Shown: one piece after another, positions 26,613-61,256 of the stretch
Position numbering within the stretch: position 1 is the stretch's first letter
How the letters are laid out: each line of letters opens with the position of its first letter
DNA from: Clostridiales bacterium
GTDB taxonomy: Bacteria > Bacillota > Clostridia > Saccharofermentanales > Saccharofermentanaceae
Assembly: GCA_017617995.1 (NCBI GenBank)
Contig: JAFZVE010000072.1
Coordinates: 31,997-95,996 of the forward strand
Direction of reading: 5' to 3'
DNA length: 64,000 nucleotides
The notes under the pieces: model-generated
What the model saw: the letters and a program-made list of their open reading frames with translations, nothing else
The model's database searches: none
What the model was told of the DNA's origin: nothing
Position numbers and translations under genes: made by a program

Positions 26613-26974
26613 GCAAGAGGTCAGCGCTTTTCCGGCTTGACCTCTTGTATCGGGGCGAAGAAAAATACAAGAGGTCGACAGAATTTCGACTTGACCTCTT
26701 GTATCGGGGCGAAGAAAAATACAAGAGGTCGACAGGATTTCGACTTGACCTCTTGTATCGGGGCGAAGAAAAATACAAGAGGTCGACAGGATTTCGACTT
26801 GACCTCTTGTATCGGGGCGAAGAAAAATACAAGAGGTCGACAGGATTTCGGCTTGACCTCTTGTATCGGGGCGAAGAAAAATACAAGAGGTCGACAGGAT
26901 TTCGACTTGACCTCTTGTATCGGGGCGAAGAAAAAAACAAGAGGTCGACAGGATTTCGACTCGACCTCTTGTAT
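26613..26974. repeat. tandem array A: one degenerate plus six near-identical 54-bp units, each built from a 12-bp inverted repeat
   Basis: GACCTCTTGTAT starts at 26639, 26693, 26747, 26801, 26855, 26909 and 26963, an exact 54-bp period. ATACAAGAGGTC starts at 26665 and every 54 bp thereafter. The linkers alternate between CGGGGCGAAGAAAA (14 nt) and GACAGGATTTCGACTT (16 nt). Confidence 0.95.
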
Positions 26975-27003
26975 CAGCATCATTCTCGTTTTCCGTTTAG
27001 TAT

Positions 27004-28419
27004 TCAGATCCTCGTTCCGCACTCCTGGCAGAAAGCGCCTGTAGGCGGAAGCGGTTTTCCGCAGTTCATGCAGAACTTCGGACGTGCTGCCTGCGGTGCT
27101 GCCGGAGCCGCTGCCTGGGCGGGCGCTGCCGGTGCTGCTGCCGCGCCAGCATCCGCGCCTTCCCACAGTTCCTTCGGATAGCCGCTGTTCTTAAGGAAGT
27201 TCACCGCATTTACCTCGGAGCCGTCCGGGTATGTCGGGCCGAACATCTTCTTAGCTTTTTCCGCCTCGATCGCCGCGCCCTGAAGCGGAGTCAGACCCTG
27301 AGCTTTCCAGTTCGCGAGCTGCTGCTGACGGGCCGCTTCCATCGCAGCCTGCATTTGTGCCGCCATCTTCGCCGGATCGCTGGCGAGTTCCATCTTCTGC
27401 GTCATGCTATCGAGCTTCATCTTTTCCTTGCCGTCCATCGTGATACTACCGATCGTGATCTCGAGTACATTGTCGCCGGAATTACGAAGTTCCTCGGCTG
27501 CCTTCTGTGCGATCTCATCGGCCTTGCTTCCGAGATCCAGCACCGATACATCGCGCAGATTCATCAGCTGCATATTGATATTCATCACGACCATGTCCGC
27601 CATCATCGAGAGTTTCTTCTCATAGTAATCCGGCTCGAACTTGGTCATATCGATCGTATACGTACCGCTCATGTCGATCTTGCAGGTCATTTTTGTCTTC
27701 GCATCACGCATCGCCAGTGTCGCTGTTCCACCTACCGAAGAAAAAGCGGCGGTGATCCGGTCGACCTTCGCCGTCGGAACCGGGCCTACAGGCGCAAGTG
27801 CTTTTTCAAAGATAACAAAAGGCTTCTCATACTGTGCAGCACCGCCGAGCTGGCTCGCCATTTTTGCTTCTTCGACCTTCTCCCGCTCTGCTCTCGCCTG
27901 CTGCTTCGCGGCTCTTGACGCATCGCTCTCTCTTAAAGAAATGTGCGAGATATCTGTTCTTACCTGCAGTCCCAGCGCCTCGATCTTCGGGAAAAGCACC
28001 GGATCGAATTCCTTGTCGCGCATCATGATCGAGGTCGCGCCGAGCATCGTGCCCTTCGCCTGCTCTTCTTCCTTGATCTTCAGGATGAATGCCTTCGCCT
28101 CCGGGACCACGGTCTGGTAGATCTTCCCCATCACTTCCTGCTCTGTGCGGAAGGGAGCACCCTCGACAGGGATGACGTTGAGGACGCCGTTCGGGACGAT
28201 GGTCTCCTTGCCCATCATCGACTCGATTTCCACGCCGACTTCTGTTTTCACGCGGATCGCGATCGTCTTACCGGGTGTGATCGGCGTGCCCTGGGGCTGT
28301 GCCATCGGCTGCTGCATCGGCATGCCCTGCTGACCTTGCATTGGAGCCCCTGCCTGGCCCTGGAACGGAGCCGGCTGACCCTGCATATTGTTACCATTCG
28401 GATTCTCGAAATATCCCAT
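27004..28419 (-). CDS. hypothetical protein with Q/P/M-rich N-terminus and C-terminal zinc ribbon
   Basis: Trimmed to ATG 28419 (MGYFENPNG) after GGGAGGAAG. The C-terminus FCMNCGKPLPPTGAFCQECGTRI is a CxxC..CxxC motif. The central part is charged and helical. Confidence 0.7.
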   Translation of the reverse strand: MGYFENPNGNNMQGQPAPFQGQAGAPMQGQQGMPMQQPMAQPQGTPITPGKTIAIRVKTEVGVEIESMMGKETIVPNGVLNVIPVEGAPFRTEQEVMGKIYQTVVPEAKAFILKIKEEEQAKGTMLGATSIMMRDKEFDPVLFPKIEALGLQVRTDISHISLRESDASRAAKQQARAEREKVEEAKMASQLGGAAQYEKPFVIFEKALAPVGPVPTAKVDRITAAFSSVGGTATLAMRDAKTKMTCKIDMSGTYTIDMTKFEPDYYEKKLSMMADMVVMNINMQLMNLRDVSVLDLGSKADEIAQKAAEELRNSGDNVLEITIGSITMDGKEKMKLDSMTQKMELASDPAKMAAQMQAAMEAARQQQLANWKAQGLTPLQGAAIEAEKAKKMFGPTYPDGSEVNAVNFLKNSGYPKELWEGADAGAAAAPAAPAQAAAPAAPQAARPKFCMNCGKPLPPTGAFCQECGTRI

Positions 28420-28484
28420 GTTTCTTCCTCCCTTGTTCCACAAATCTACTTGAGAATATTATATCAGAAAAGCACTTCTCCCGG

Positions 28485-29861
28485 TCACGATTCCGTCTCT
28501 TTTGCCACACGCGCGGCACACCAGTTCTCGAATTCCTGTTGCTTGGCATAGGACTCGAAATAGTACTCCTGAAACTCCGCCATCTCACTATCAGCGGCAT
28601 CTTCCTTCCAGTAAAGATACAGCCACGGTCCATCGCCGCCGGCCTCGAGTGATTCCTTCCGGCGCATCACTTTGCCACCTGAGATCAACTCCCATATCTT
28701 GTCGCACTCCTCGGCCGTGAGCTCGATCTTTCCGGAGTCTGTCACATCGGACTCCTCCAGCGGCCAGTGATCGCCCTCCCTTTTCTCGTGATAGAGGAAC
28801 CATTTCCCGTCCTCGCAGAGGATCTCGTAGCGCTGGAAGGTCGGCGGATCTGTCGAGTCCGAGCGGGTGAACCGGAATTCCTTCATCTGCTCGCGCGTCA
28901 CTTCGTCACCCACCACATACTCATATTTCGGAGTATTCTTCGCCATGAGCGATTCTCCATTTTTAATCGCATCCGTCATTACAGTGGCCGCCGTGAGGCC
29001 GAAGCCACCGAAAAACATGGCCGCCGAAAGCCCGCCCGCGATGGCAAACTTCGTAGCTTTATGGTGTTCGGGATCGATAAGCATCATGCCGGTCACGAGA
29101 AGGATCGGTGCGGCAAACGCGAAAAACATATATGCACCGAGCGCCGCGACGCCGTTGATTTCCATCACCTGCTCTGCCGAGCTCTCGGTGTTGATGAACT
29201 GATTGCCGAGATAGCTCAGCGTCGCCGCCGCGAAGTTATTGAGGAAATGCATGAGCATCGGAAGAAGAATATTGTTTTTCTTAACAAGAAGGTACGACAT
29301 GATCGCACCAGCCGTCGCCGTACTCAGAAACCGAAGCGGCGACCAGTGCATGATACCGAAGAACACGCCCATGATGAGGACGATCACCCAGTCTTTCTTA
29401 ATCGACCGGAAATGGGACAGCACGCAGCCACGCTCCATCGACTCTTCACAGATCGCCGGCAGAAGCGCTACGACGAGCACCATCTCGAGGTAATTCATCT
29501 TTCCGTAGAGGAAATCCGACAGTCCCGTCACTTCGCTTCGGACGGACTTCGGAAGGACTGCGAGCGAGATACCGACACCCACCATACTGAAGAGAAATCC
29601 GGTCACCGCGAGAATCACGACACCCCAGAATTCTCTGCCCGTGATTTTCTTTACCGGGAACATCTCACGGAGTTTGACACGGCGGATGAGGCAGTACAGT
29701 ACCGAAACGACCAGGAACATCAGCTCGGATCCGATGAGTCCGGGGATGCCGTATGTTCTCTGCATCCACGCGCCCGCCGTGAGAAATAGTCCGAGAAAAC
29801 CCGCCTGTACCACAAATCCCATCCATGGGCGGAGTTTCTTCTGATTCGATACCTGTTCCAT
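28485..29861 (-). CDS. CPBP-family intramembrane glutamic endopeptidase with soluble C-terminal extension
   Basis: Motifs EESMERG, FGIMHWS and HFLNN lie in a multi-TM protein. An extra soluble domain of about 170 aa follows. Confidence 0.8.
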   Translation of the reverse strand: MEQVSNQKKLRPWMGFVVQAGFLGLFLTAGAWMQRTYGIPGLIGSELMFLVVSVLYCLIRRVKLREMFPVKKITGREFWGVVILAVTGFLFSMVGVGISLAVLPKSVRSEVTGLSDFLYGKMNYLEMVLVVALLPAICEESMERGCVLSHFRSIKKDWVIVLIMGVFFGIMHWSPLRFLSTATAGAIMSYLLVKKNNILLPMLMHFLNNFAAATLSYLGNQFINTESSAEQVMEINGVAALGAYMFFAFAAPILLVTGMMLIDPEHHKATKFAIAGGLSAAMFFGGFGLTAATVMTDAIKNGESLMAKNTPKYEYVVGDEVTREQMKEFRFTRSDSTDPPTFQRYEILCEDGKWFLYHEKREGDHWPLEESDVTDSGKIELTAEECDKIWELISGGKVMRRKESLEAGGDGPWLYLYWKEDAADSEMAEFQEYYFESYAKQQEFENWCAARVAKETES

Positions 29862-29968
29862 ACGTCTCTCCTGTTGTTTTACCTATGCTAAAATAGTACC
29901 ATATTCACTCGGGTTTCGGTAATCCGAAGCCCCCGAGAAAACAAGATCCGAGAATCGAGGAACACGTC

Positions 29969-30817
29969 ATGACTATACCGATCGAGACTGTAAAAACATC
30001 CGAATTTGAGATGGATTATTTCCGCTTCGGAAACGGAAAGAAGACCGCGGTCATTCTTCCCGGGATCAGCGTCAAGTCCGTGATGGACTCAGCCAGCTCA
30101 GTGGTCAAACAGTACTCGCTCTGGGAGGAAGAATTCACGACGTATCTTTTCGACAGAAGGAAGAATCTCCCCGAGAAGTACTCGGTCCCCGATATGGCGC
30201 GTGATACTGCCTCCGCGATGCGTGCGCTCGGCCTTTCCGGCGTATGTCTTTTCGGCGCCTCTCAGGGCGGCATGATCGCTCTTGCCTTAACGATCGACAA
30301 CCCCGATCTCGTAAGTAGACTCGCCCTCGGTTCCACCACCGCCCGGGTCACTTCGGACGACACTTCGGGCTGCACTTCTGAAGATGGAGAAGAATCTTCC
30401 GGTGCTCTCGGCTGCATCGACAACTGGATCGACCTCGCCAGATCTGGCGACGCGCGGACACTTTATCGCGAATTCGGAAGACACATCTACCCTGAAGCGG
30501 TTTTCGAGCGATATAAAAATATCCTCGAAGGACTAAGTAACTTCGTCACGAAGGAGGACCTCGACCGATTCATCACACTCGCCGAAGGGACTTACGGATT
30601 CGACGTCAGCGCCTCACTCGACAGAATCACCTGCCCCGTTTTCGTCATCGGCTCAAACGACGATGAGGTGGTCCCTCCTGCATACTCTCTCGAGCTCAAA
30701 GAAGGTCTCACCTCATCTTCTGATTGTAAGCTTTATATGTATGACGGCTGCGGTCACGCGGCATTTGACACCGCGCCCGACTACCAGAAACGCCTCCTCG
30801 ATTTCTTCACCGCTTAA
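29969..30817 (+). CDS. alpha/beta hydrolase
   Basis: Nucleophile elbow GASQGG and a C-terminal GCGH motif, in 282 aa. Confidence 0.8.
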   Translation: MTIPIETVKTSEFEMDYFRFGNGKKTAVILPGISVKSVMDSASSVVKQYSLWEEEFTTYLFDRRKNLPEKYSVPDMARDTASAMRALGLSGVCLFGASQGGMIALALTIDNPDLVSRLALGSTTARVTSDDTSGCTSEDGEESSGALGCIDNWIDLARSGDARTLYREFGRHIYPEAVFERYKNILEGLSNFVTKEDLDRFITLAEGTYGFDVSASLDRITCPVFVIGSNDDEVVPPAYSLELKEGLTSSSDCKLYMYDGCGHAAFDTAPDYQKRLLDFFTA

Positions 30818-30848
30818 CCGAGGCGTATATTCTGCACATCTTCACTAC

Positions 30849-31070
30849 TTAGCCCAGCAGCGCCTCGACGGCTTTTCTAACCTCGTCCATATCAACGGTC
30901 GGCTCGAATCGAGCGACGACATTCCCCTCACGGTCGATCAGGAACTTCGTGAAATTCCAGCGGATATACGCCTTGTCGCCAAAGGTCTTGTTGTTCATGT
31001 CCGAGAACTTCTTCAGCGCCATGCTCTTGATGCCATTTCCGAATCCTCCTTTTTGATTCTGTTTTCTCAC
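30849..31070 (-). pseudogene. glutathione peroxidase C-terminal fragment
   Basis: Only the last ~70 aa of a Gpx remain (..IRWNFTKFLIDREGNVVARFEPTVDMDEV..). The N-terminal catalytic part is missing, and the upstream sequence reads as an unrelated short ORF. Confidence 0.6.
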
Positions 31071-31374
31071 GAAATTCCATCTTAATGAATCCGTTTCACG
31101 AATTCTGTTCCATATTCCGAAGTGCCTTGTACGTCAGTTCATAGAGCACCTGAAATTCCTCGAGCGTAAGACCCATACACTTCGCGATCGCCGGGGGGAT
31201 GTGCACGGCTCCGATGTCAATCCTTTCCTTTATGAAAAAAACACGAAAACAAAAGGCGGGTAGTTGACAGTGACATCGACCCGTGGTATCATGATTCACG
31301 ACGATATCATTTTGATATCACTTCAACATCACACGAGGGCTCATGCCCATGACAAGAAAGAAAAGGTGAAACTT

Positions 31375-32430
31375 ATGAAAGACACAAACATCAATGAGAA
31401 AATCCTTAAGGGAAGAAAGATCGGAGGTCTCGTCCTCTTCCTGTACATCATTCTGACCTGTGCTTCGATCGCAGGCATCATCTACAGCGGAATCAACGCT
31501 ACCAACGACAACCCGGATCCGCTATGGATGTTCATCGTAAGTATCGTCTTCATCTGTATCGGTTGGTTCCCGCTCTGCGGTCTTAAAGTCCTTAAGCCGA
31601 ACGAAGCCCTCGTACTGACACTCTTCGGTAAATACATCGGCACCCTGAAGGGCGACGGATTCTTCTGGGTCAACCCCTTCTGCACAGCCTTTAATCCGGC
31701 AGCAGGTACTCACCTCGGTCAGAGTGGAGATGTTTCCCAGAAAGGATCTTCCATCCTGGTAGCTGCCGCTGCGGCAAGCACCGGAACATCTGCAACAACG
31801 ACAGCAGAGATGGTCTCCAGAAAGATCTCCCTTAAGGTCATGACCCTCTCGAACTCTAAGCAGAAGGTCAACGACGTACTCGGTAATCCGGTCGAGATCG
31901 CAGTCGCCGTTATGTGGAAGGTCAACGATACAGCGAAGGCAGTATTTAATGTAGATAACTTCAAGGAATATCTCTCCCTGCAGTGCGACACCGCAGTCAG
32001 AAATGTAGTTAAGGTTTATCCTTATGACGTAACAGATAACGTAGATACCACAGGCGACGGCGAGGCCGATGACGGGTCCCTCAGAGGTTCCACCGAGGTC
32101 GTCGCCAACCGTATCAAAGAAGAGATCCAGAGCAAGGTTTCCGATGCGGGTCTTGAGATCGTCGATGCACGTATCACCTACCTGGCCTATGCACCGGAGA
32201 TCGCTGCGGCGATGCTGCAGCGTCAGCAGGCTTCCGCGATCGTAGACGCGAGAAAGCTCATCGTAGACGGCGCCGTCGGCATGGTCGAGATGGCTCTGGA
32301 AAGATTGTCCGAGAAGAACACAGTCGAACTGGATGAGGAGCGCAAGGCGGCAATGGTTTCCAATCTCCTGGTCGTACTGTGCGGCAATAAGGAAGCGCAG
32401 CCGGTCGTAAACTCCGGCAGCCTCTACTAA
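31375..32430 (+). CDS. SPFH/Band-7 domain membrane protein
   Basis: Trimmed to ATG 31375 (MKDTNINEK..). It has two N-terminal TM segments followed by an SPFH-like core ending ..AAMLQRQQASAIVDARKLIVDGAVGMV. Confidence 0.8.
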   Translation: MKDTNINEKILKGRKIGGLVLFLYIILTCASIAGIIYSGINATNDNPDPLWMFIVSIVFICIGWFPLCGLKVLKPNEALVLTLFGKYIGTLKGDGFFWVNPFCTAFNPAAGTHLGQSGDVSQKGSSILVAAAAASTGTSATTTAEMVSRKISLKVMTLSNSKQKVNDVLGNPVEIAVAVMWKVNDTAKAVFNVDNFKEYLSLQCDTAVRNVVKVYPYDVTDNVDTTGDGEADDGSLRGSTEVVANRIKEEIQSKVSDAGLEIVDARITYLAYAPEIAAAMLQRQQASAIVDARKLIVDGAVGMVEMALERLSEKNTVELDEERKAAMVSNLLVVLCGNKEAQPVVNSGSLY

Positions 32431-32442
32431 GGGACGGAAGAA

Positions 32443-32652: not shown

Positions 32653-32713
32653 TCCTTCTTCGCGAAAAGCACTAGCACATCGAGTGACTGCTAAAAGAAG
32701 AAAAAGCAAGCGC

Positions 32714-36772: not shown

Positions 36773-38686
36773 TCAGAACCCGATCGGCTTTTTCAGCGTC
36801 GTCTCCTCTTCTTCCTTTGCCATCTCCGGAAGAGAAAAATCTTCCGAAAGGAGATGTAAGCGCACCTCCTCGTCCGGAGCCTCCGGGGAATCTGCCTTCT
36901 TCGTCTTGGGATGCGATTCTTCGGGAACCGGTGTTTCTTGACAAGAGACATCTCCGTTTCCGTAGACCCGCATCGCGTAGTTCATGATCGCGTTCTCGAC
37001 GAGGTTTCTGCAGAAACGTCCGTTGCCGTTCTCACCATTACCGCACGCCTCTCTACAGAGCTCGATGATTCTTCCTTCGGCAGACTTACTGATTCTGAAA
37101 CCGCGCCCTTCAGCGGTCTTCTCCGTGATCGCCAGAAGCTCTTCTTCTGTGTAATCCGGGAAGGAGAGATGGAACGGAACTCTCGACCGAAGCCCCGGAT
37201 TTCTTCTCATAAATTCCGCCATCTTATCGGGGTATCCCGCGAAGATCACGATGGTATTCTCCCTGTTGTTCTCCATCTCCTGAACGATCGTGTTGATGGC
37301 CTCATCGCCGTAGGAATTAGTCCACCTGTCCAGAAGAGAATACGCCTCGTCGATGAAGAGTACTCTTCCTCTGGCACGCGAGAAAACCTCTTTCACTTTC
37401 ACGGCCGTATGTCCGGTATACTCACCGACCAGATCCGCACGGCCGACCTCGATGACCTCGGAGAACTTGAGGAGGCCTACCTCGTGAAAAAGTCTGCTCA
37501 TGATGCGTGCGACAGTGGTTTTCGCGGTGCCGGGATTACCGGTGAATTCCATGTTCATCACGATCGGAGAGGTAGAAAGATGCCGCGCCTGTATGTCCTT
37601 CTGCATACGTGCAAAGGCGATGATCTTTTTCGCCTGCATCTTGATCCCGGAAAGCCCGATCAGATTATCCAGTTCTTCCATCGCCGCCACCGGGGCAGGT
37701 TTGTCCGGCAGTGCCAGCACTCTGCACTTCGGGAGGACGCCCTTCTTGCGAAGTGAATCAAGTACCTTGTGAATCTCCCTGACACAACTCTGTGACATAT
37801 TTCGCATCTCCCAAAGGTCATCGTCACTCAGATTCACCAGTTCCGAAAGAGTCGAGACACCGGCTCTCTTCAGGACGTTATAGGCACGAACGGAGAGGTG
37901 GAGAGACTCGATCGGCATGCATGCCAGTTCCTCTTCTCTTTCCTCCTCCGTCTGCGGAATCACCATGCTCCGATAGAGCATCACGCCGATTTCTCTTCTG
38001 AGAAATGTGCTCGGGATCAGCGTGGCTTCCTTCTCTTCGCTGTTCATGTTTTTCAGCTCATCGAAATCCCTGATTCTGCCATGGCGAAAGAAGATCGAAA
38101 GGACACTTCTCAATCGAAGAGATATGGGCCTGGGCGTACTCACCATGAGCAGAAGTCCGGGGTTTTTGTCCTTGCAGGGAAATGCCGTGATGCGCAGGAT
38201 CGCCCGCTCCGCGGCAATCTCCCGATAGACTTCTTTCATACTCACATTGGGAAGAAGCGTTTCTTCATCGCTATAGGCGATCTCGATAAAATCGCATTCA
38301 TCCTGATCGAGTTCCTCCTGCGTCGTCGGGCGATCAAAGAAATACATGTACCGATCCTTCGAGAACTCCATCGCTACTTCATTCGCTTTCTCCAGAGGTT
38401 CAACTCCATTGGCCGGAAACGCCCATCGGACGGTATCGGGATGTACAGCAGTATCGTTACTGAAGACCTGAAGATCCGGGATACATCTGTCTCCCGGAGT
38501 CCACTGGAAACCTACGAATCTGTCCGGCTTCATCGCTTCGAGCAGAAAGAGGAAACGCTCATATGCGATCGTTCCGACGGAATCGTCCCGATCACGGAAT
38601 TTCTCTGCGTGAGCGTGATCGGTAATCGCGATGTTAGCCATCACCTTAATCAGTTCTTCTCTTACATTTGTGTTTTTTCTAGTCAT
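36773..38686 (-). CDS. SpoVK/CbbX-type AAA+ ATPase fused to RpoA-alphaCTD-like HhH domain and an unknown N-terminal domain
   Basis: ATG 38686 follows GTGAGG. Walker A GNPGTAKTT, Walker B VLFIDEAY and the CbbX-like tail are present. The central segment PIESLHLSVRAYNVLKRAGVSTLSELVNLSDDDLWEMRNM resembles the RNA polymerase alpha C-terminal domain. Confidence 0.8.
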   Translation of the reverse strand: MTRKNTNVREELIKVMANIAITDHAHAEKFRDRDDSVGTIAYERFLFLLEAMKPDRFVGFQWTPGDRCIPDLQVFSNDTAVHPDTVRWAFPANGVEPLEKANEVAMEFSKDRYMYFFDRPTTQEELDQDECDFIEIAYSDEETLLPNVSMKEVYREIAAERAILRITAFPCKDKNPGLLLMVSTPRPISLRLRSVLSIFFRHGRIRDFDELKNMNSEEKEATLIPSTFLRREIGVMLYRSMVIPQTEEEREEELACMPIESLHLSVRAYNVLKRAGVSTLSELVNLSDDDLWEMRNMSQSCVREIHKVLDSLRKKGVLPKCRVLALPDKPAPVAAMEELDNLIGLSGIKMQAKKIIAFARMQKDIQARHLSTSPIVMNMEFTGNPGTAKTTVARIMSRLFHEVGLLKFSEVIEVGRADLVGEYTGHTAVKVKEVFSRARGRVLFIDEAYSLLDRWTNSYGDEAINTIVQEMENNRENTIVIFAGYPDKMAEFMRRNPGLRSRVPFHLSFPDYTEEELLAITEKTAEGRGFRISKSAEGRIIELCREACGNGENGNGRFCRNLVENAIMNYAMRVYGNGDVSCQETPVPEESHPKTKKADSPEAPDEEVRLHLLSEDFSLPEMAKEEEETTLKKPIGF

Positions 38687-38880
38687 ACTGTGCCTCACTT
38701 TCACGGCGGGCTTTGCCGCCACTTAAAGACTTGTCGTTCATTCGCCGGGATGCCTCACGGGACTTTCCCCACGGATCGCTCGCTGCGGAGTTCGCAGGTC
38801 CTCGCAAACCGTTTTGTCGGGGCCGGCCGCCCCGTGAGTATCCGGGCCGATTGTCAAGGTACGGTTCGTCTCGGACACAG

Positions 38881-40323: not shown

Positions 40324-40369
40324 GTTGTTCCAGTGAAGAATGCAGGTCTGGTTGATGCCGTCCTGTCTT

Positions 40370-40596
40370 CAGTCTGATTTCTGTCTAATTTCACCCCTTT
40401 GATTAGACAGATATCAGACCAGAAATCGCTTCAGTCAGATAAATGCCCTTTCTTTCGCTGATCATCTGACTGGAAAAGCACTTCAGTCTGATTTTCCGTC
40501 AGATAGGGCACAAAATCAGACAAATCATCAGAATAATAAACACACAGTCTGATATTTGTCAGATGGCACCCCTTTCATCAGACAGATATCAGACTG
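40370..40596. repeat. hairpin-repeat cluster B1 (CAGTCTGAT / ATCAGACTG family, four hairpins)
   Basis: Left arms start at 40370, 40432, 40484 and 40545. The outer hairpins are ~52 bp (20-bp arms, 12-nt loop containing CACCCCTTT). Confidence 0.9.
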
Positions 40597-40620
40597 GCTT
40601 CATATTCAAACAAAATCAAG

Positions 40621-49219: not shown

Positions 49220-49376
49220 ATTCTCTTCCTCCTGTTTTGTGTTTCTCCTTACTGGAAGATTATCATGAAAACCTAACATTTCGCATCGCTATAAATAGCG
49301 ATTTTGAGGTGGGTGGGGGTGCGGATCTGGTCTGATTTTCTCTCTTTTTTCCTTGGATAGGGTTCGCTCTGAGGCT

Positions 49377-49602
49377 CAGTCTGATTTTTGTCTGATGGCA
49401 CCCTCTTCATTAGACAGAAATCAGACTGAAAACTCTCCCAGTCTAACAGAACCGGCTTTTTCAAGATTCGTCTGACCAGAGTGGCGTCCCAGTCAGATAA
49501 ACAGTCTGATACGAGCTCAAATCAGACAGATCGTCAGACTGGCTGACTCCCAGTCTGATATCTGTCTAATGTCACACCCTTTATCAGACAAATATCAGAC
49601 CA
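49377..49602. repeat. hairpin-repeat cluster B2 (same family and same internal spacing as B1)
   Basis: Left arms start at 49377, 49439, 49490 and 49551 (spacing 62/51/61, versus 62/52/61 in B1). The outer hairpins have loops GGCACCCTCTTC and GTCACACCCTTT, in the same orientation as B1. Confidence 0.9.
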
Positions 49603-49723
49603 GGAACATGCTCTTCAGTAATTCAGTCAGATGCACCGCGTATTATCCCGATATTTCTGACTCAGTCACTTTTTCAGTCAATTTCCGGCGCCAAAAGTGA
49701 CAGTTCAGTGAGCAGTCCACCCC

Positions 49724-49762
49724 AAAAAAGCCGCCCCCGAAGTTTTTCACTTCCGGGACGGC
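49724..49762 (-). terminator. predicted terminator after the SPFH/zinc-ribbon gene
   Basis: The minus strand reads GAGCCGTCCCGGAAGT-GAAAAA-ACTTCGGGGGCGGCT followed by TTTTTT. Confidence 0.7.
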
Positions 49763-49818: not shown

Positions 49819-51312
49819 TCAGTTCTTAGGTGCCACACACGGGCTTCCGCAATCCGGGCAGAATCTTGATACGATTCCGGTCTTACCGCAGTTCGGGCAA
49901 TTCCAGGTCGCTACTACCGGAGATGTATGCTCAGCCGGAGCCGGAGTTGCAACAGGAGCTGCATCGACAGGTGCTGCCGGAGCAGAAACTGTACCCGCAA
50001 CGACACCGGCGGTTGCGCCGGCAACCACACCGGCCGTAGCCGGATCAACAGGAGCACCCGCCACAGGAACGCCTGCGACCGGAGCGCCAGCTACAGGAGC
50101 TGCACCAGGAACACCGGCACCAGGAACCGTACCTGCCGGTGCGCCGGTATTTCCTGCGACCACTCCGCCGAAGCCCTGTCCGAGCTGTGCGGAAGTGCCC
50201 ATGATCGGATTCAGCGCATCCTTCGTCATATTGATCACGCCGCCCATCGCACCGAGCGCCACACCAAGACCTGCGACCTCGCCGATACCGCCGGCTGCTC
50301 CGCCACCTGCACCACCACCGGTGATACCGTTCTGCATCGCTTCCATGCCGACCTTTCTCGCGGTCTCGTCCTGATAGGAGTAACCCTTCATTCTCATCTC
50401 CTGGGCCTCCGCCTCAGCCTGCATACGATACGCATCCGCTTCCGCCTGCGCCTTGATACGGATCGCCTCGGCATCTCCCTGCGCACTGACCATCTTCAGC
50501 TGTGCCTCTGTCTGCGCCTCGACGATTTTTCTGCCCTGCGCGGCCTCAGCCTCAGCACGTCTGACTTCCTCTTCACGAACCTTAAGAGTACGATCCGCGA
50601 ACTGCTGCTTCAGTCTTTGGAAGTTCGGGTCATCGTCCGGCGTCATCACGGTCGTGATGTAGAACTCCGGCATGAAAAGACCATACTCGACGAGCGACTC
50701 ATTGATGACCGCCTGCATCTGCGCAGAGAGGACATCGAGGTACGCATCGACTTCGAGGATATTGATATTCTGTTCTTTAATAACACGAGCCAGGTTCGTC
50801 TTCACGCGGTTGATGATGAGCGCTCTAAACTTACTTGTGCCGTATTCGAGTCCTTCGCTCGGATCCGCGATCTCGCTTCTGAGAAGTCCATCTGTCGTAC
50901 CGACGATCTTCACGATGAGCTTACGGGAATCGACGACCTTCAGGTTAAAGGTACCGCTCGCGCCCACCTCGATATGAAGTCCCGATGCCGGATCGAAGAG
51001 ACGGACCTTGCTGTCCGTACCCCAGCGGATACCCATCTGGGTGGTCATGTTGATGAAGTAGACCTCCGCGTGGAAGACATTCTCTCCACCGGTACCGAGC
51101 TTCATCAGGTCACGCAGGAGCGGGATGTTATAAGTCGTTAAGGTATGACGGCCTGCCTGGAAAAGGTCCAGCGCTTTACCATCTCGGAAAAAGAGCGCCT
51201 CCTGCGACTCATGAACGATCAGCTGAGATCCGATCGTGATGTCTTCCTTCGGATGCTTGTACGCAAATACCTCATTACTGCCTTCGTACTTGATTACACT
51301 AATAATTTCCAT
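49819..51312 (-). CDS. SPFH-domain protein (YdjI-like) with Gly/Ala/Pro-rich linker and C-terminal zinc ribbon
   Basis: MEIISVIKYEGSNEVFAYKHPKEDITIGSQLIVHESQEALFFRDGK is typical of YdjI-type SPFH proteins. The C-terminus is WNCPNCGKTGIVSRFCPDCGSPC. Confidence 0.8.
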   Translation of the reverse strand: MEIISVIKYEGSNEVFAYKHPKEDITIGSQLIVHESQEALFFRDGKALDLFQAGRHTLTTYNIPLLRDLMKLGTGGENVFHAEVYFINMTTQMGIRWGTDSKVRLFDPASGLHIEVGASGTFNLKVVDSRKLIVKIVGTTDGLLRSEIADPSEGLEYGTSKFRALIINRVKTNLARVIKEQNINILEVDAYLDVLSAQMQAVINESLVEYGLFMPEFYITTVMTPDDDPNFQRLKQQFADRTLKVREEEVRRAEAEAAQGRKIVEAQTEAQLKMVSAQGDAEAIRIKAQAEADAYRMQAEAEAQEMRMKGYSYQDETARKVGMEAMQNGITGGGAGGGAAGGIGEVAGLGVALGAMGGVINMTKDALNPIMGTSAQLGQGFGGVVAGNTGAPAGTVPGAGVPGAAPVAGAPVAGVPVAGAPVDPATAGVVAGATAGVVAGTVSAPAAPVDAAPVATPAPAEHTSPVVATWNCPNCGKTGIVSRFCPDCGSPCVAPKN

Positions 51313-51315
51313 CGA

Positions 51316-55673: not shown

Positions 55674-55731
55674 GTCGCACCACAGTTCTTCTCACCAATC
55701 CTGACTTTGTGTTTTCGCCACGCCACAGGAC

Positions 55732-56112: not shown

Positions 56113-56337
56113 GTTGTTTGACCTCCTGTCGTTTTGGTAGCCTCACTATACCTTTTCCCGTCATAACATCTCTACCAACTGGGGCTTGAACTTTGTCAAC
56201 CTGAGGTTGCGATACGTATTTTTCAGGGGTTTTCGCGTTTTTTCGGGCGAGTCGGTCCTTCTCATGGATATTGTATCACTTTCTCCTCCGGAGTGTTTCC
56301 GCCGGGTATTTTTCTTCTCCAAAAGCACTTGCCCGGA

Positions 56338-56346
56338 TGGTATAAT
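56338..56346 (+). promoter_or_regulatory. extended -10 element (TGGTATAAT) upstream of the 773-aa lipoprotein gene
   Basis: TGGTATAAT lies ~85 nt upstream of ATG 56432. Confidence 0.4.
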
Positions 56347-56431
56347 CAGATGTGTGTCGTATGTCTACGCCGCCGCAGGATCGTATATAGTTGGGGAAGA
56401 TCTTCGAGGATGGATCAGATAGGACAGGGTT

Positions 56432-58753
56432 ATGGCAAAGAGAAGAGAATTCAGGGATGTAGTTGTTCGGCTCGAGTGCGCCATTTTTATCGTGGCACTG
56501 CTGTTCAGTTCGCTCGCATTTAGCGGATGCACCAGCGGAAAGAAAGAGACGACGAAGAAGGGTAAAAATTCGAAGTCGAAAGATACAAAAGAGTACGTCG
56601 AGACCGAGGACGACGAAACAGAGCCTTCCGATGCGGAAGCGCCGACTGAGTCCGAAACGGAAGCGGAGACGGAGCCTGAAGAGGAGGAAGAGAAGGAACC
56701 GGAAGAAGATCCGGAGCCTCGCGCGCTCGAGATCGCGGCCGAAGTCGGACTCAGCGAGGAGGACCTGCGTGGCGAATATGCGCTTTTCCTGAAGTATGCG
56801 GCTGCCGTTGCAAGTAACCCCGATCTTCACGAATATAGAGGATACATCTATAGTCTCTTCCCGCTTGTCGCCGATCACCTCGAAAGCGAAAACGAAGAAT
56901 ACTTCCTCAAGCAGGTCAACACCCTCTTTTTCATGAACGTCGAGACCGAAGATTTCTGGGGTGGCTTCTCCCCCGACGCCAACGGGATCTTCATCGGAAT
57001 CGATCAGTTTCAATCCTGTACAGCCGGCCAGCAGGCCACAGGGCTTTATCACGAGCTCATGCACTTCATCGACAACTGCATCGACGGACCATATACATCC
57101 ATCTGTTTACTCGATGACGGAAGCTTCGCCAACACCCTCGATTATCCCGAAGAAGAATGGGAGAATATGACGATCATCGAATCGCCGTACTGGGCCGAGG
57201 GCGGCTCCGAGAAGTACTACGCCCGGTATTTCACCTATGCGCCGGAGACGGGCGCCTACCGCGTCGCCGAGCAGTTCCTCGTCGGACTCGAGTATATCTT
57301 CGGAAGTGAGATAATCGACGAGATGTTCTTCGCCCACGACACGGATCTCCGCTTCGTACATCTCCTTCAGGATAATGGTTTCACGAACGACGAGATCGTC
57401 AGGTTCTATAACGTGATGCAGCTGATGCTTGCGCGCGAAGACTCCGGTTTTAGTAATGACGAGCTTCTTGATCCGCAGGAGACACTGATCCGACTCTATA
57501 TCAACAACGTCGGGCCGGACTTCGAGAGTGACGCCCCCTTCTGCCGCATCCTGGCCTCGATGGAGGATCCGGTTCTAAAGCCGATCCCGTCCGAGTACCG
57601 CGATTTCACGAATACGCTCCGTCTCTTCACTGCGAAAGAGGAGGCGAACATGATGCAGAAGATCAGCAGCACCGGCCAGTATTTCGCCATCACACCGGCA
57701 CCGCTTTTCGTAGACGGCGAACTGAAGTTAGTCGCCATCTTTTTCGATTATGTAGATAGCGAAACCGTCGCCAAAGCAGTCATCATGAACTATGATTTCG
57801 AAGAGAACGAGATCGTAGACTTCGAGATCTACGATGACTGGATCCCCGAGACTCTTTACGTCACCCTTCCTTCCGACGACACGCCGGAGGCGCAGGAACT
57901 GATCGAGAGCCTGACCGCCGACAATTCAGAGGCACATACCAAGAAGATAAAAGGCAAGCAGAACGATCTTCAGGATCAATATGCCCGGGCTGAGGAGATC
58001 GGAAACAAGTACGGCATCCGTTTCTGGTTCGGTGATCTGACCCCGGACGGCGTACTCTTCTTCGACGATGTCAAGGCCTGGGATCCCGCTTACATCGACG
58101 ATGCACTCGATCAGATCGAAAATGTGCTTTCGCTCTATCCGGAGGACTATTTCGACCACTTCCTTTTCGAGTATTATTCGGGTATCGCGATCTGTCTTTA
58201 TGATGGAAACTACGAGTTTGCCTATCCCTACCGGAACCTTGTCAAGAACAAAAACTACCTGACACTCTATGTCGATGTGAGTAAGGAAGCGGTAGAGGGC
58301 CATCCCGGCGCGAATGATCTTAGCGTCCAAAACTTCAGGACAGTCCATCCGATCGCAGCTGAACTGATCTGCGATATCTGGATGATGACGGAACAGATCA
58401 TGAAAGACCGGGATGAACATTTCGACGAGGTGACCTTCACCGAGGAAGCCTGGCAGGCACTAAACCCATCGGACTTCGAGTATCTCGAGACCGATTACTG
58501 GGACGAACTCGACACGTACTCGGCTGAGGTCGACATGCAGTATTTCCTCTACACTGGATCACTTCATTCTGCAAAGAACGACCGCATGCTTTTCTATGAG
58601 TACCTGATGCTTGCTGCCCTAACCGGTGAGAACCCTCTGGAGTTCACGCCCGAGTGCCAGGCGAAGATGGACGAGCTACTTTCCATGATCCGCTTCTATT
58701 TCGAGACAGACCAGTGGCCGGATCAGACAACCTGGGAAGCAGCCATCGGATAA
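56432..58753 (+). CDS. large secreted lipoprotein with HExxH motif (putative metalloprotease-like)
   Basis: The N-terminus contains IVALLFSSLAFSGC (lipobox) and an acidic linker. There is a GLYHELMHFIDNC motif. 773 aa, no family recognised. Confidence 0.7.
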   Translation: MAKRREFRDVVVRLECAIFIVALLFSSLAFSGCTSGKKETTKKGKNSKSKDTKEYVETEDDETEPSDAEAPTESETEAETEPEEEEEKEPEEDPEPRALEIAAEVGLSEEDLRGEYALFLKYAAAVASNPDLHEYRGYIYSLFPLVADHLESENEEYFLKQVNTLFFMNVETEDFWGGFSPDANGIFIGIDQFQSCTAGQQATGLYHELMHFIDNCIDGPYTSICLLDDGSFANTLDYPEEEWENMTIIESPYWAEGGSEKYYARYFTYAPETGAYRVAEQFLVGLEYIFGSEIIDEMFFAHDTDLRFVHLLQDNGFTNDEIVRFYNVMQLMLAREDSGFSNDELLDPQETLIRLYINNVGPDFESDAPFCRILASMEDPVLKPIPSEYRDFTNTLRLFTAKEEANMMQKISSTGQYFAITPAPLFVDGELKLVAIFFDYVDSETVAKAVIMNYDFEENEIVDFEIYDDWIPETLYVTLPSDDTPEAQELIESLTADNSEAHTKKIKGKQNDLQDQYARAEEIGNKYGIRFWFGDLTPDGVLFFDDVKAWDPAYIDDALDQIENVLSLYPEDYFDHFLFEYYSGIAICLYDGNYEFAYPYRNLVKNKNYLTLYVDVSKEAVEGHPGANDLSVQNFRTVHPIAAELICDIWMMTEQIMKDRDEHFDEVTFTEEAWQALNPSDFEYLETDYWDELDTYSAEVDMQYFLYTGSLHSAKNDRMLFYEYLMLAALTGENPLEFTPECQAKMDELLSMIRFYFETDQWPDQTTWEAAIG

Positions 58754-58756
58754 ACC

Positions 58757-58810
58757 GAAAAAAGTCAGACTAAAGCTTAGGAAACAAGGGGGATGCTTTA
58801 GTCTGACTTG
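58757..58810. terminator. 15-bp perfect hairpin between convergent genes (T-run on minus strand)
   Basis: AAGTCAGACTAAAGC (58762-58776) pairs with GCTTTAGTCTGACTT (58795-58809). An A6 run precedes it on the plus strand, which is a T6 run after it on the minus strand. Confidence 0.6.
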
Positions 58811-58862
58811 AGGGGGGTGTTCAGGAAATATCCTGAACAGCTACGGAAATGAAATCTGCGGA

Positions 58863-59438
58863 TCAGTAGTACATATCAAATCCGCTTTCGAGGGTATTCG
58901 CATATGTTTTTCCGGCTTCTTCCAAAGCAGGAAGGATATAGTCTTTGTTATATCGGACCACAGAGATGCGGTCGTAAACACGCATGCCCATGTGAGAAAG
59001 TCCGCGCTCGAACTGTGTCAAGCACTCGAGTGTGCCGCGTCCCGTTCCACCCGCGCAGGCGACGAGCACACAGCGCTTCTCGGCAAGAAGGCGGTTATGC
59101 GTGGCATCGCATCTGCGAAGCCGGTCGAAGAATGCCTTGAAACACTCGGTCATATCCGACCAGTACACCGCACTGATGAAAACGATGCCATCGGCGGAGG
59201 CGAGCTTACCATAGATCTCGGCAAAGTCATCACCGATCACGCAGGAACCGGTCTTATTGCAGGTACCCCAGCCGTTCCCGCAGGCACGGCAGTGCTCGAT
59301 ATGCTTACTATTGAGATGGATCTCTTCCACCTCGACCTTCGTCTCGCTTTCCAAAAGTCCGGCAAGAATCTGATTTTTCGCCGTTGCGGTTAGTCCGTTA
59401 AGATTCGGACTTGACCAGATGATTACTACTTTTTTCAT
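58863..59438 (-). CDS. flavodoxin-family / iron-sulfur flavoprotein-like protein
   Basis: ATG 59438 follows GGAGG. MKKVVIIWSSPNLNG and the Cys cluster HCRACGNGWGTCNKTGSC are present. Confidence 0.75.
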   Translation of the reverse strand: MKKVVIIWSSPNLNGLTATAKNQILAGLLESETKVEVEEIHLNSKHIEHCRACGNGWGTCNKTGSCVIGDDFAEIYGKLASADGIVFISAVYWSDMTECFKAFFDRLRRCDATHNRLLAEKRCVLVACAGGTGRGTLECLTQFERGLSHMGMRVYDRISVVRYNKDYILPALEEAGKTYANTLESGFDMYY

Positions 59439-59606
59439 ACAGTCTGCCTCCATTTCCATACGTTTTTCTCTACATCCAAATCCCCGAGTAAAATCTACAC
59501 AGATTATAGTTTTTGCAACGTTTTAAACAAATAAGAGTTTTATCCTGTTTTGCGGAAAAATATCACTATTTTGCTCAATTCATTTCGAATGGTGTATAAT
59601 CCAGAT

Positions 59607-60884
59607 ATGAGAAGGCCGATCACAAAAAAAGATAAGAAGATCCTCGATAAGTACAGCAACCATATCCAGACGCTAATGATGTCCGGTACGGCTGGCTTTA
59701 GTTTTCTCGCGCTTTCCATCGGCACCGCTGTGGGCGGCATCCTCGGCGCTATTGTGGCATTCGGGATACTCGGCGAGCATCATCCGCTTTCCCTTTACAT
59801 CTTCCTGTTCTCTTTTCTTATCGGCGGTGCCCTGGCTGTTTTTTTCACTATGAAGATCGGCACGAGAAGCAAGCGGAATAAGCTCTTCCGCGTTGGCATA
59901 ACACTGTTAAATGGCGCGACGTGCGTAAATAATATCGATGACGAGGAGTTCACCTATACCGAGGACGATCTTCTCGACGAAAACGGGCATCCTTATAAGA
60001 TCCTGTTTACGGAACTCTATAGCAGACCGAAGAAAGGCGACCGGTTTATCGTCCTCGTAAACGGTGATGTGACCTTCCTCATGAAAGCCGAAAACGAAGA
60101 ACTTGCGAGTCTCATCCCGGAGAAAGCGCCACAGGAAGTGCATCCGGATTCCATCGTCATCGCTCACCAGAACGAGCTTCTAAAGAAAACTTCCGTGGCC
60201 CCGCAGGCCGCATCTGCAGCGCAGACCGTGGTGACTCCTACAGCTCAGGCACAGGCTGTGGCTCCTACAGTGCAGGCACAGACCGCCACTACATCTTCAC
60301 AGATCCAGTCGCAGATCCCCAGCGCGTCGGCGCCGACGCCTCTTTACCAGTCGCAGAACGAAGCGTACAGGATTGCGGCTTCAGCTTATGAGAAGCGCCA
60401 GATCGAGACCTTCTACAACCACTATCCGAACACTTCCCGATTCCGCCGTTCTCTGGCCATCCTCGGCACAGGCTTCTTCGGGTTCTGTTTCCTCACCATC
60501 ATTTTCTTCTCCTGTTACGGATTATTCTTCGATGGAACGGCTTACGAAGACCGCTACTTCCCGGTCGCCGTCCCGCTCATCTTCTTATTGACTCCGGTCT
60601 GCATCTGGGTGTGCATCCGCGTTTTCAAGAGGAGTCTTTATAAGAAATACGGTGAGATCAAGGCCGTAAAGCCTGTCCTGCTCGTAAGGACGAACGTCAA
60701 CATGATCGTACCCCATACCCGTGATTTCGTCATCTCGGAGGCTGACATCAACGGCAACATGGTCGTCAATCAGTACCGTGCGCATCCGAATTACGACTGC
60801 GCCGATTCCGATCACATGAAGCCCGGCCAGACGATCTTCAAGTACACCTTCGAAAACGGCGGCATCTTCTTCGGCTCAAAGTGA
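59607..60884 (+). CDS. hypothetical membrane protein
   Basis: The ORF is open from 59550 (TTG). ATG 59607 lies 7 nt after TGTATAAT, so the start is uncertain and the mRNA may be leaderless. It has TM segments and a Q/A/T-rich linker. Confidence 0.6.
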   Translation: MRRPITKKDKKILDKYSNHIQTLMMSGTAGFSFLALSIGTAVGGILGAIVAFGILGEHHPLSLYIFLFSFLIGGALAVFFTMKIGTRSKRNKLFRVGITLLNGATCVNNIDDEEFTYTEDDLLDENGHPYKILFTELYSRPKKGDRFIVLVNGDVTFLMKAENEELASLIPEKAPQEVHPDSIVIAHQNELLKKTSVAPQAASAAQTVVTPTAQAQAVAPTVQAQTATTSSQIQSQIPSASAPTPLYQSQNEAYRIAASAYEKRQIETFYNHYPNTSRFRRSLAILGTGFFGFCFLTIIFFSCYGLFFDGTAYEDRYFPVAVPLIFLLTPVCIWVCIRVFKRSLYKKYGEIKAVKPVLLVRTNVNMIVPHTRDFVISEADINGNMVVNQYRAHPNYDCADSDHMKPGQTIFKYTFENGGIFFGSK

Positions 60885-60902
60885 TTTCACGTCGATCGCC
60901 CA

Positions 60903-61256
60903 TTCCGTCCCTTTTGAAAGTATCATCAATTGGGGACGGAAGATTTCAACGTCCTTCAATGCCAATTCCGTCCTTTTCTCCCAAAATGGCGAAAAGGGAC
61001 GGAAATATAAACGAGGGTTCTTCCCCTTTTCCGTCCCTTTTGAGCAAAATCGCTATTTCGGACGGAATTTTAAGATTCTCGGAGAATCAGATTCCGTCCT
61101 TTTTTTGGAAAATCTTCATTCGGGACGGAAATGCGTATTCCCTCGCAAAGATAATTCCGTCCCTTTTCGACAAAAATACGAAAACAGACGGAAAGCCCTC
61201 AGAAGGCCACATCGGTTTTCCGTCCCTTTGAAAGTATTTGCAAATTGAGACGGAAT
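60903..61256. repeat. hairpin-repeat array C: six units, exact 63-bp period (TTCCGTCC ... GGACGGAA)
   Basis: TTCCGTCC starts at 60903, 60966, 61029, 61092, 61155 and 61218. GGACGGAA-like arms start at 60934, 60997, 61060, 61123, 61186 and ~61248. Loops and inter-unit spacers vary in sequence. Confidence 0.95.

Follow-up and report, generated by a model that had tools for sequence, protein, structure and literature searches.

Interspersed arrays of fixed-length hairpin repeats downstream of genes in rumen Clostridiales

What kind of element is a tandem array of hairpins that recurs at gene ends on unrelated arm sequences? The question is raised by a 64,000-nt stretch of a Clostridiales genome (hereafter "the window"), in which an earlier note had described four such arrays (A, B1, B2, and C) and proposed for them a common generator. 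The arrays themselves are confirmed: they exist as inverted-repeat units, seven in A, four each in B1 and B2, and six in C, positioned as claimed after stop codons at 27004, 40323/40621, 49819, and 60884/61338. The claim of a high hairpin density also held, with 33 perfect hairpins (arms ≥9 bp) in the window compared to 3–10 in shuffled sequences, and nearly all of these hairpins lie within the four arrays. One correction concerns B2, which a terminator separates from the SPFH/zinc-ribbon gene ending at 49819.

Table 1 Coordinates of arrays and associated features in the window.
Feature	Position	Strand	Description	Source
blaI-like gene promoter	26395..26423	−	TTGACA-17-TAGAAT, TCTACA-N4-GTAGA operators on both flanks	
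Degenerate A-like hairpins	26499..26613	−	Adjoin array A, in phase; arms CACGAGGT / ACCTCATG / ACCTCGTG	
Array A	26614..26975	−	7 hairpin units, period exactly 54 bp	TRF, arm positions, unit print-out
Array A arms			ATACAAGAGGTC / GACCTCTTGTAT	
Array B1	40367..40600	+	4 hairpins; unit starts 61, 53, 64 bp apart	
Motif GAAAAGCACT	40473..40482	+	One copy, in B1 spacer	
Array B2	49376..49610	+	B1 paralogue: 4 hairpins, identical order and orientation	
Intrinsic terminator (canonical) of SPFH/zinc-ribbon gene (stop 49819)	49724..49762	−		Read by eye from sequence
Isolated hairpin	58762..58809	.	15-bp arms, convergent gap	
Array C	60903..61260	.	6 units, period exactly 63 bp	
Intrinsic terminator (canonical) of HerA-like gene (stop 61338)	61266..61292	−		Terminator scan and sequence

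In array A, the 12-nt arm GACCTCTTGTAT alternates with its own complement in steps of 26/28 bp. TRF reports 6.3 copies of a 54-bp period with 98% matches at 26636–26975, and the seventh hairpin is a variant first unit at 26614. On the minus strand, which is sense for the upstream gene, TATTTTTCTT follows every hairpin, and the terminator scan returned terminator-like matches on this strand. The adjoining degenerate hairpins are kept in a relative (locus L042, 78%). The genes downstream are blaI/blaR1, and the position of the blaI-like promoter shows that their transcription unit begins only after array A and does not include it.

The two B arrays can be aligned over ~250 bp with a column identity of 76% and a conserved order of the four hairpins. 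Arms in B1 are two-part, with GTCWRAT heptads at 11-bp distance, and its long units contain the loop CACCCCTTT. A strict two-part-arm pattern matched at 40372, 40547, 49379, and 49553, and in 0 of 100 shuffles; in a scan of genome contigs, it matched only two loci, both in one related MAG and at non-orthologous sites. B2 is surrounded by a partial arm (49327–49339) and a degenerate fifth hairpin (49617–49670). The isolated hairpin at 58762 is real, including its 15-bp arms, but its suggested membership in family B is weak: ~11 of 14 bases match the arm of B1 unit 2 in a by-eye reading. It may represent a lone relative of the short B unit.

Array C begins 18 nt past the stop (60884) of a convergent 444-aa gene and, relative to the HerA-like gene, lies beyond that gene's terminator. 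Its TTCCGTCC copies start at 60903, 60966, 61029, 61092, 61155, and 61218, i.e., at exact 63-bp steps, with arms TTCCGTCCC(TTTT) and (AAAA)GGGACGGAA at a spacing of 31/32 bp. Its units have diverged in loops and spacers, and the right arms of the last two are degenerate. Family C is known from this single locus only.

The grammar common to these unrelated arms is real and general in the lineage. In one metagenome scan, A-type units (CAAGAGGT-N18-ACCTCTTG-N20) formed arrays of 4–8 units at 11 distinct loci of rumen Clostridiales, a count taken over metagenome contigs; two of these loci share one 177-kb contig, and two share one 45.7-kb contig. The arrays are thus not limited to four loci without family structure: family A is dispersed with a fixed geometry, and family B recurs at the non-orthologous sites of the related MAG. 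Units of one family are found at many unrelated loci in several species, and neighboring genes are unrelated across the 11 family A loci. Arm spacing is 26/28 bp in all but ~5 of >200 intervals, the exceptions being one-base deviations. Units are arranged head-to-tail, with loop and spacer keeping one orientation along the array, and within-array similarity ranges from 98% in the window to higher-order two-unit repeats (loci L054, L060, and L073). In relatives, family A loops have the consensus GAAAAGCACT, and no oligomer is more over-represented in the genome region; array A of the window has lost this motif.

Arrays are found downstream of genes only, as the earlier note had proposed for the 3′ flank. 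Six of the family A gaps are convergent, four are co-directional, and none is divergent. For co-directional gaps, the upstream stop is 9–107 bp away and the next start 200–370 bp away, and the strand of the array, as set by the A-rich loop, is that of the upstream gene in every case, with the T-rich tail pointing along the sense of this gene. At 8 of the 11 loci, the array begins 1–40 nt past a same-sense stop codon. We saw no conserved promoter ahead of family A arrays, and no target-site duplication or conserved insertion site at their borders.

Compensatory substitutions maintain the stem. At pair 3–38, T-A occurs in 80 units, G-C in 7, and A-T in 4, and the observed pairing was reached in 0 of 1000 shuffles. 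G·U pairs number 64 on the sense strand vs 35 on the other, and arm conservation well exceeds what pairing alone needs. The family A consensus consists of a 13-bp stem followed by nTTTTC; units 1 and 2 of L042 bear T5 and T8 tracts. Stems followed by a T-rich tail occur in array A (minus strand) and array C (both strands), and because loops span 12–22 nt, the scan detects only inner mini-hairpins within arrays. Minimum free energy folding of whole arrays as RNA yielded highly stable structures on both strands (z −6 to −11); since repeated arms pair over long range, folding settles neither register nor strand.

Beyond A, B, and C, at least four further families occur in relatives, with periods of 50, 53, 63, and 63 bp. 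Each family has a fixed unit length of 50–63 bp, comprising a stem of ~8–13 bp, a loop, and a spacer, and periods stay exact between species and even where units have diverged (54 bp for A; 63 bp for C, D, and F; 50 bp for E). From one related species to another, orthologous intergenic slots differ in the arm family they contain, i.e., family replacement within one slot occurs. In the window, the phosphodiesterase gap is occupied by B and the HerA gap by C. The former contains a B-like unit and a 50-bp GGTCTC array in an 89% relative and A-type units in a 73% relative, the latter a CATACTAAA array, likewise with 63-bp spacing, in a 91% relative. In L046, three kinds of repeat form a mosaic in the gap downstream of the SPFH gene. 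The presence of an E-family array differs between the window and 87–89% relatives, and a CTAAGATCAAC...GGTGACAG tail is conserved beside B/E arrays in relatives. Finally, the gain and loss of units that the earlier note had suggested checking is apparent from copy numbers differing between assemblies of one locus (L044 vs L045; L046 vs L047 and L065): arrays grow, shrink, and homogenize in register.

The earlier interpretation is partly supported. No single generator common to the arrays came to light; for array growth, in-register tandem duplication or unequal exchange suffices. A Pfam scan of 50 window ORFs detected no Y1_Tnp, other transposase, RAYT, integrase, or cas domain, in agreement with the reported lack of a RAYT-like gene in the window, and a crude HUH...Y regex test yielded no RAYT candidate across ~450 kb of window and related loci. 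Searches of the window and six related loci against Rfam 15 gave 0 matches at gathering score, and only chance-level matches for array A at E up to 1; a tRNA search returned none. A phage origin was rejected, as arm-pattern scans of viral contigs gave nothing or chance matches without inner heptads. That the window and the related loci examined revealed neither a mobilizing gene nor a target duplication nor a conserved flank counts against a reading of the arrays as dispersed repeats.

The arrays could instead be phased DNA sites for a protein, with hairpins a by-product of dyad symmetry. Such a protein could be of the nucleoid, gyrase, or IHF type known from BIMEs, or a site-specific recombinase like the one suggested to act on dRS3 of NIMEs. 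Phased sites would account for the persistence of exact periods (A 54; C, D, and F 63; E 50; ~5 one-base deviations in >200 intervals), for an arm conservation well above pairing needs, and for the B heptads, which lie 11 bp (one helical turn) apart in direct and inverted orientation and are kept where pairing is lost. Yet stem pairing is preserved through compensatory changes, an orientation rule with respect to transcription is unexpected for symmetric sites, periods of 50, 53, 54, and 63 bp have no common helical phase, and the arrays have no candidate binding protein associated with them, neighbors being unrelated across the 11 loci. We consider such sites unlikely. We regard it as still less probable that every array represents a gene for a structured non-coding RNA, e.g., a sponge displaying the family A loop motif GAAAAGCAC in the manner of CsrB/RsmZ-type RNAs. 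The over-representation of the family A loop consensus, the conservation of B1 and B2 as entire four-hairpin composites with an asymmetric loop, and the excess of G·U pairs on one strand would be consistent with such a gene, but arrays have no conserved promoter before them and mostly start 1–40 nt past a stop codon, the loop motif is lost from array A of the window, unit number varies freely, and Rfam provides no match.

Two further explanations appear highly improbable. A blaI/blaR1-type operon follows array A and a small gene follows B2, as might be expected for independent clusters of operators serving distinct neighboring regulators; array A can nevertheless be ruled out as a BlaI operator, since the true TCTACA-N4-GTAGA operators belong to the blaI promoter, 190 bp away. 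More generally, local operators are contradicted by one unit type recurring at 11 loci with unrelated neighbors, and by the placement of arrays close to gene 3′ ends, not 5′ ends, and in no case in divergent gaps. Equally remote is the prospect that arrays encode repeat peptides or small ORFs translationally coupled to flanking genes, as in MIRUs. The earlier note had seen no coding potential: frames are indeed not conserved, but open frames do cross arrays A (54 bp, or 18 codons) and C (63 bp, or 21 codons), whose periods are divisible by three. ORFs span array A in both the window and L042, ORF 60881–61231 begins at a GTG overlapping the upstream TGA, and gene callers annotate ORFs at arrays. 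Coding repeats were rejected all the same, as stops interrupt 10 of 20 A arrays even in the best frame and no frame is open throughout. In addition, conserved residues only mirror the arms whereas loop-encoded residues vary, the array of the 91% relative is not open, and 50 and 53 bp are among the periods of other families.

Among known systems, the arrays share several traits with the REP/BIME elements of Enterobacteria and Pseudomonas, whose REPINs are mobilized by RAYT: short palindromic units in regularly spaced extragenic arrays at gene 3′ ends, with several families per genome, lineage-specific arms, and variable unit number (PMC2817692, PMC3116915, PMC3733652). Dispersed extragenic copies, mostly at 3′ ends, are what is observed for family A, with 11 loci and no divergent gap. 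BIME positions are reportedly conserved between E. coli and Salmonella, with species-specific units (attributed to Gilson et al. 1987). REPs and REPINs are defined by an unpaired GTAG (or CGTC) tetranucleotide at one palindrome end and have loops of 2–20 (GTAG) or 4–5 nt (CGTC) (PMC3733652), whereas the arrays described here lack such a tag and have loops of 12–22 nt. The tag is likewise absent from the family A consensus gatTCAAGAGgTTT...AAACCTCTTGaat, and the CGTC of array C arms sits within the paired stem. BIMEs consist of regularly spaced REPs in alternating orientation (PMC2817692); here spacing is regular, but units form head-to-tail tandems with a fixed spacer. REP/REPIN systems have a cognate RAYT (HUH/Y1 transposase) gene flanked by the repeats, and no RAYT was detected in the window or, by the crude test, in ~450 kb of related loci. 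The host also differs, being a Firmicute, a phylum not named in the 2013 survey.

In the NIMEs of Neisseria, dRS3 repeats (ATTCCCN8GGGAAT) separate RS segments of variable length (PMC1797815). Similar to the arrays here, a short conserved inverted repeat recurs with variable sequence between, and long mosaic arrays combine several repeat kinds with strain-variable unit number (PMC1797815), comparable to the SPFH slot of L046. NIME spacers, however, are 19–214 bp long and comprise >100 families, and dRS3 is a single 20-bp element targeted by phage or recombinase; here arms differ from dRS3, unit length is fixed per family, and no such recombinase or prophage is linked. Pneumococcal BOX (boxA-boxB(n)-boxC), RUP, and SPRITE are interspersed intergenic repeats of Firmicutes, and BOX shares a variably repeated internal module and predicted stable RNA structures (PMC3049150). 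BOX differs by its terminal modules A and C, with only boxB repeating, and by its unrelated sequence; terminal modules are absent here except for the CTAAGATCAAC...GGTGACAG tail. Array A superficially recalls the near-identical tandem repeats, each some dozens of bases long, just upstream of a gene in type III toxin-antitoxin loci (ToxI), but is followed by blaI/blaR1 rather than a ToxN/AbiQ-type gene, and A units occur at 11 unrelated loci. The arrays are also distinct from CRISPRs, in which unique spacers of similar length lie between identical direct repeats, usually close to cas genes: here inverted copies alternate, loops and spacers are related between units, and no cas domain was detected among the window ORFs scanned. 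Mycobacterial MIRU-VNTRs comprise tandem units of 40–100 bp at ~40 dispersed intergenic loci with strain-variable copy number, and small ORFs overlapping flanking stop/start codons (attributed to Supply et al. 1997). MIRUs are located within operons and are not known to have marked dyad symmetry. Tandem units, dispersed intergenic loci, and variable copy number are thus shared with MIRUs, but every unit here is a hairpin, no ORF is conserved, and arrays follow the last gene or occupy the gap of a convergent pair.

Taken together, we favor the view that the arrays are probably lineage-wide interspersed mosaic hairpin repeats, a Clostridiales analog of BIME/REP and NIME elements. The kind of element resembles known REP/BIME, and the array families of rumen Clostridiales are previously undescribed: the literature searched contained no comparable arrays in Clostridia or Saccharofermentans. 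Arrays probably form the transcribed 3′ end of the mRNA of the upstream gene, where hairpins and U-rich tracts could act as terminators, 3′ exonuclease barriers, or insulators; judging from sequence, a terminator or stabilizer role may be envisaged. Expansion would proceed via replication slippage or unequal exchange, and new loci might be seeded by a trans-acting activity or by ectopic recombination between arrays.

Several observations run against an RNA 3′-end role. An intrinsic terminator typically has a GC-rich stem with a 3–8-nt loop and an adjoining U tract; loops here are larger, at 12–22 nt, and family A tails mostly reach just T4. Family B has no T tract, and B1 and B2 lie on one strand, yet their upstream genes are on opposite strands. 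The HerA and SPFH genes already have canonical terminators before C and B2. Indels are few despite diverged loops and spacers, which a spacing-sensitive DNA–protein complex would fit better, and the majority of stem mismatches are not wobble pairs.

More speculatively, Saccharofermentans-related rumen Clostridiales might possess a RAYT-independent REP/BIME-like system, in which an activity writes and overwrites gene 3′ flanks with many fixed-length families, and the family A loop displays the hyper-abundant 10–12-mer CTCGAAAAGCACTG; we advance this only tentatively. That oligomer may be an uptake-type or protein-recognition signal and, if so, its display in loops would link repeat arrays to a second genome-wide signal. 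In practice, the arrays affect the quality of rumen MAGs, as they break short-read assemblies, with contigs ending within arrays, and induce spurious ORF annotation by gene callers. Interspersed palindromic arrays have been much studied in Proteobacteria and hardly in Clostridia. With its many families, strict unit lengths, slot turnover between close species, and no visible RAYT, this lineage offers a natural system for asking how repeats spread without a known transposase, and whether a fixed geometry is imposed by RNA or by protein.

Overall, the arrays belong to families of interspersed hairpin repeats. These families undergo in-register change, are confined to gene 3′ flanks and are oriented with transcription. 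The existence of four arrays in the window (A, B1, B2 and C) was borne out by TRF, arm patterns, shuffles and a hairpin count: perfect hairpins (arms ≥9 bp) numbered 33, against 3–10 in shuffles, and nearly all lay inside these arrays. Array A is a 54-bp tandem repeat (TRF; 6.3 copies, 98% matches) in which a 12-nt arm and its complement alternate in steps of 26 and 28 bp, giving seven hairpins when the variant first unit at 26614 is counted. The six units of array C have left-arm starts exactly 63 bp apart and right arms offset by 31 bp, with loops and spacers diverged between units. A strict two-part-arm pattern (GTCTGAT-N4-GTCWRAT-loop-ATYWGAC-N4-ATCAGAC) matched twice each in B1 and B2 and never in 100 shuffles. 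Since B1 and B2 align over ~250 bp (76% column identity) and have four hairpins in common, in identical order and orientation, they are paralogous composites rather than independent clusters.

The host is a rumen Clostridiales near Saccharofermentans, Ruminococcaceae bacterium KH2T8 and YRB3002, and the window is ordinary chromosome. Pfam scans of 50 ORFs identified sugar metabolism, two-component systems, a blaI/blaR1 pair, SPFH proteins, an SNF2 helicase and a HerA-like ATPase; none of the 50 matched a transposase, integrase, HUH enzyme or Cas protein. BlaI/MecI-type operators (TTCTACA-N2-4-TGTAGAA) form a tandem duplicate downstream of blaR1 and flank the blaI promoter; such operators also occur in a 78% relative (percentages are protein identities to the window). 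A 524-aa gene is thus a possible member of this regulon. Another gene product, kept in two related stretches (L003, L046), combines an RNA polymerase alpha C-terminal domain with an AAA ATPase, and several neighboring proteins have zinc-ribbon C-termini.

Coordinates of the arrays and associated features
Feature	Stretch	Position	Context
Array A	window	26614-26975	between zinc-ribbon protein gene stop (27004) and blaI promoter (26395-26423)
Array B1	window	40367-40600	occupies convergent gap
Array B2	window	49376-49610	past SPFH gene terminator, ahead of small gene
Array C	window	60903-61260	occupies convergent gap
ORFs over arrays	window	26519-27181, 60881-61231	
ORF over array	L076	3221-3466	
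ORF over array	L077	2739-3293	
Tail of B-/E-type arrays	L007	2155	
Tail of B-/E-type arrays	L008	7919	
Tail of B-/E-type arrays	L040	2232	minus strand
Tail of B-/E-type arrays	L044	3430	
Duplicated gene end	L031	3161-3178, 3227-3244	91% relative
Contig ends at arrays	L041	11662	
Contig ends at arrays	L078	3048	
Contig ends at arrays	L030-L033		
42-bp array	L050	1-230	high-GC organism
42-bp array	L051	13-276	
Duplicated operators	window	23275-23322	downstream of blaR1
blaI promoter operators	window	26395-26450	TCTACA-N4-GTAGA
BlaI/MecI-type operators	L042	8220-8275	78% relative
524-aa gene	window	21587-23161	
RNA polymerase alpha/AAA gene	window	36773-38722	minus strand
Zinc-ribbon C-termini	window	stops 27004, 41509, 49819	neighbors of 36773-38722 gene
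AAAAGCAC example sites	window	6640, 7725, 12208, 14606, 16530, 23330, 25737, 28468, 32665, 40474, 41582, 48021, 56321, 61549	

Family A was traced with one metagenome scan (CAAGAGGT-gap-ACCTCTTG-gap-CAAGAGGT, each gap a free 12–24 nt), which matched 28 stretches, 22 of them arrays of 4–7 units with the 26/28 spacing. The remaining six, from other environments, were classed as unrelated; two of these are 42-bp tandem hairpin arrays with the family A arm core GAACCTCTT...AAGAGGTTC, which entered only through the scan pattern, come from other samples than the window and are not necessarily kin to family A. Scan, window and other related loci together yielded 11 distinct family A loci by flank similarity, in some cases two on one contig. 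The zinc-ribbon/blaI gap contains eight A-type units in the 78% relative and two, then the contig end, in an 87% relative; the arms keep exactly to the window's 26/28-bp spacing even though loops and spacers differ. Family A also occupies a non-orthologous locus, i.e., the gap of B1 in a 73% relative, with the same 54-bp geometry. Its unit consensus, gatTCAAGAGgTTTncncgAAAAgcncnaAACCTCTTGaatnttttc, is a hairpin (stem of at most 13 bp, 14-nt loop) with a T-rich tail, and unit length showed only ~5 one-base deviations in >200 intervals.

Gap type was assigned at 10 of the 11 family A loci, since the units of L067a are identical to those of L057, probably the same locus: six gaps were convergent, four co-directional and none divergent. 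In co-directional gaps, arrays lay 9–107 bp from the upstream stop and 200–370 bp before the next start, always on the strand of the upstream gene (orientation by the A-rich loop). At eight loci, a same-sense stop codon preceded the first arm by 1–40 nt. The other hairpin families likewise lie at gene 3′ ends.

Shared slots revealed turnover between families. The HerA gap, occupied by C in the window, instead holds in the 91% relative an array with arms CATACTAAA/TTTGGTATG, also in 63-bp steps; a plain terminator and no array were seen after the gene in the 80% relatives, whose contigs stop short of the next gene, and in a 77% relative, where the neighboring gene differs. The 91% relative carries two copies, 66 bp apart, of the final 18 bp of the convergent 444-aa gene with its stop codon (TTAGCGTGAGCCGAAGAA); the gene end was thus captured by a tandem duplication in this gap. 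The phosphodiesterase gap holds B in the window, A-type units in the 73% relative and, in an 89% relative, a single unit resembling B together with five or six units of 50 bp whose arms are two-part (AGTCTCC-N3-GGGTCTC); the 50-bp family fills a second slot in 87–89% relatives that is empty in the window. Downstream of the SPFH gene, L046 carries a 1-kb mosaic in which ACACATTA hairpins are mixed with hairpins of the CATACTAAA type and with AAAAGCACTG palindromes, and a 53-bp GACAAGAA family adjoins an A array in L052. Unit number varies between assemblies of one locus. Short-read contigs from several samples end in or just past arrays, making these assembly breakpoints in rumen MAGs. At three unrelated loci in 87–89% relatives, B- and E-type arrays (the latter with a 50-bp unit) are followed by the conserved sequence CTAAGATCAAC-N-...GGTGACAG(N)GCC. 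This tail suggests an asymmetric terminal module of the family and is absent beside B1 and B2 in the window.

Outside the arrays, the top 9-mer and 10-mer of the window were AAAAGCAC (23 copies, ~1.5 expected) and GAAAAGCACT (12 copies, 0.09 expected). AAAAGCAC has an extended consensus of ~CTCGAAAAGCACTG and occurs in both orientations, inside genes in all frames and both senses, with 9 of 23 copies intergenic. In relatives, the motif forms inverted-pair hairpins, and family A has it as its loop consensus; it is reminiscent of a DNA-uptake-type or other genome-wide DNA signal.

Several identities were rejected. Coding repeats do not fit, as the earlier note had held: even the best frame is interrupted by stops in 10 of 20 A arrays, and conserved residues merely mirror the arms. 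Public gene calls lie inside array C (81 aa) and array A (184 aa) and have no Pfam match; they are probably annotation artefacts, arising because the repeats lack stop codons. The window and six related loci had no Rfam match at the gathering score, arm-pattern scans of viral contigs ruled out a phage origin, and CRISPR was rejected, as were operators of local regulators (e.g., the blaI promoter has its own operators apart from array A). BIME/REP and NIME are the nearest known systems (PMC2817692, PMC3116915, PMC1797815), with BOX and MIRU as looser analogues. Strict REP/BIME membership is excluded: REPs carry a GTAG or CGTC tag (PMC3733652) whereas these arrays have neither, the head-to-tail units are unlike the BIME arrangement (PMC2817692), and no RAYT was found by Pfam on 50 window ORFs, as previously stated for the window, or by a crude HUH...Y pattern search, covering the window and ~450 kb of related loci. 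Literature searches turned up no account of such arrays in Clostridia. Of the earlier inference, the family structure (family A at 11 loci, further families in relatives) and the 3′-end rule stand, while a common generator was not confirmed.

The family A hairpin is under constraint. Its core pairs are 74–100% paired across 103 distinct units, pair 3-38 occurs as T-A, G-C or A-T with the observed pairing reached by 0 of 1000 partner shuffles, and G·U pairs number 64 on the sense strand versus 35 on the other; degenerate hairpins flanking arrays show the variants CACGAGG/CCTCGTG and CATGAGG/CCTCATG. Arm sequence and unit length are conserved far above the need of pairing alone. The main rival, that the arrays form a spacing-sensitive DNA–protein complex, draws on the fixed unit lengths and on the helical phasing of the family B heptads, and we regard it as unlikely. 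We lean toward the view that the arrays are transcribed as mRNA 3′ ends, where their hairpins would be terminator-like or block exonucleases, that they may expand via slippage or unequal exchange, and that a putative activity would seed new loci.
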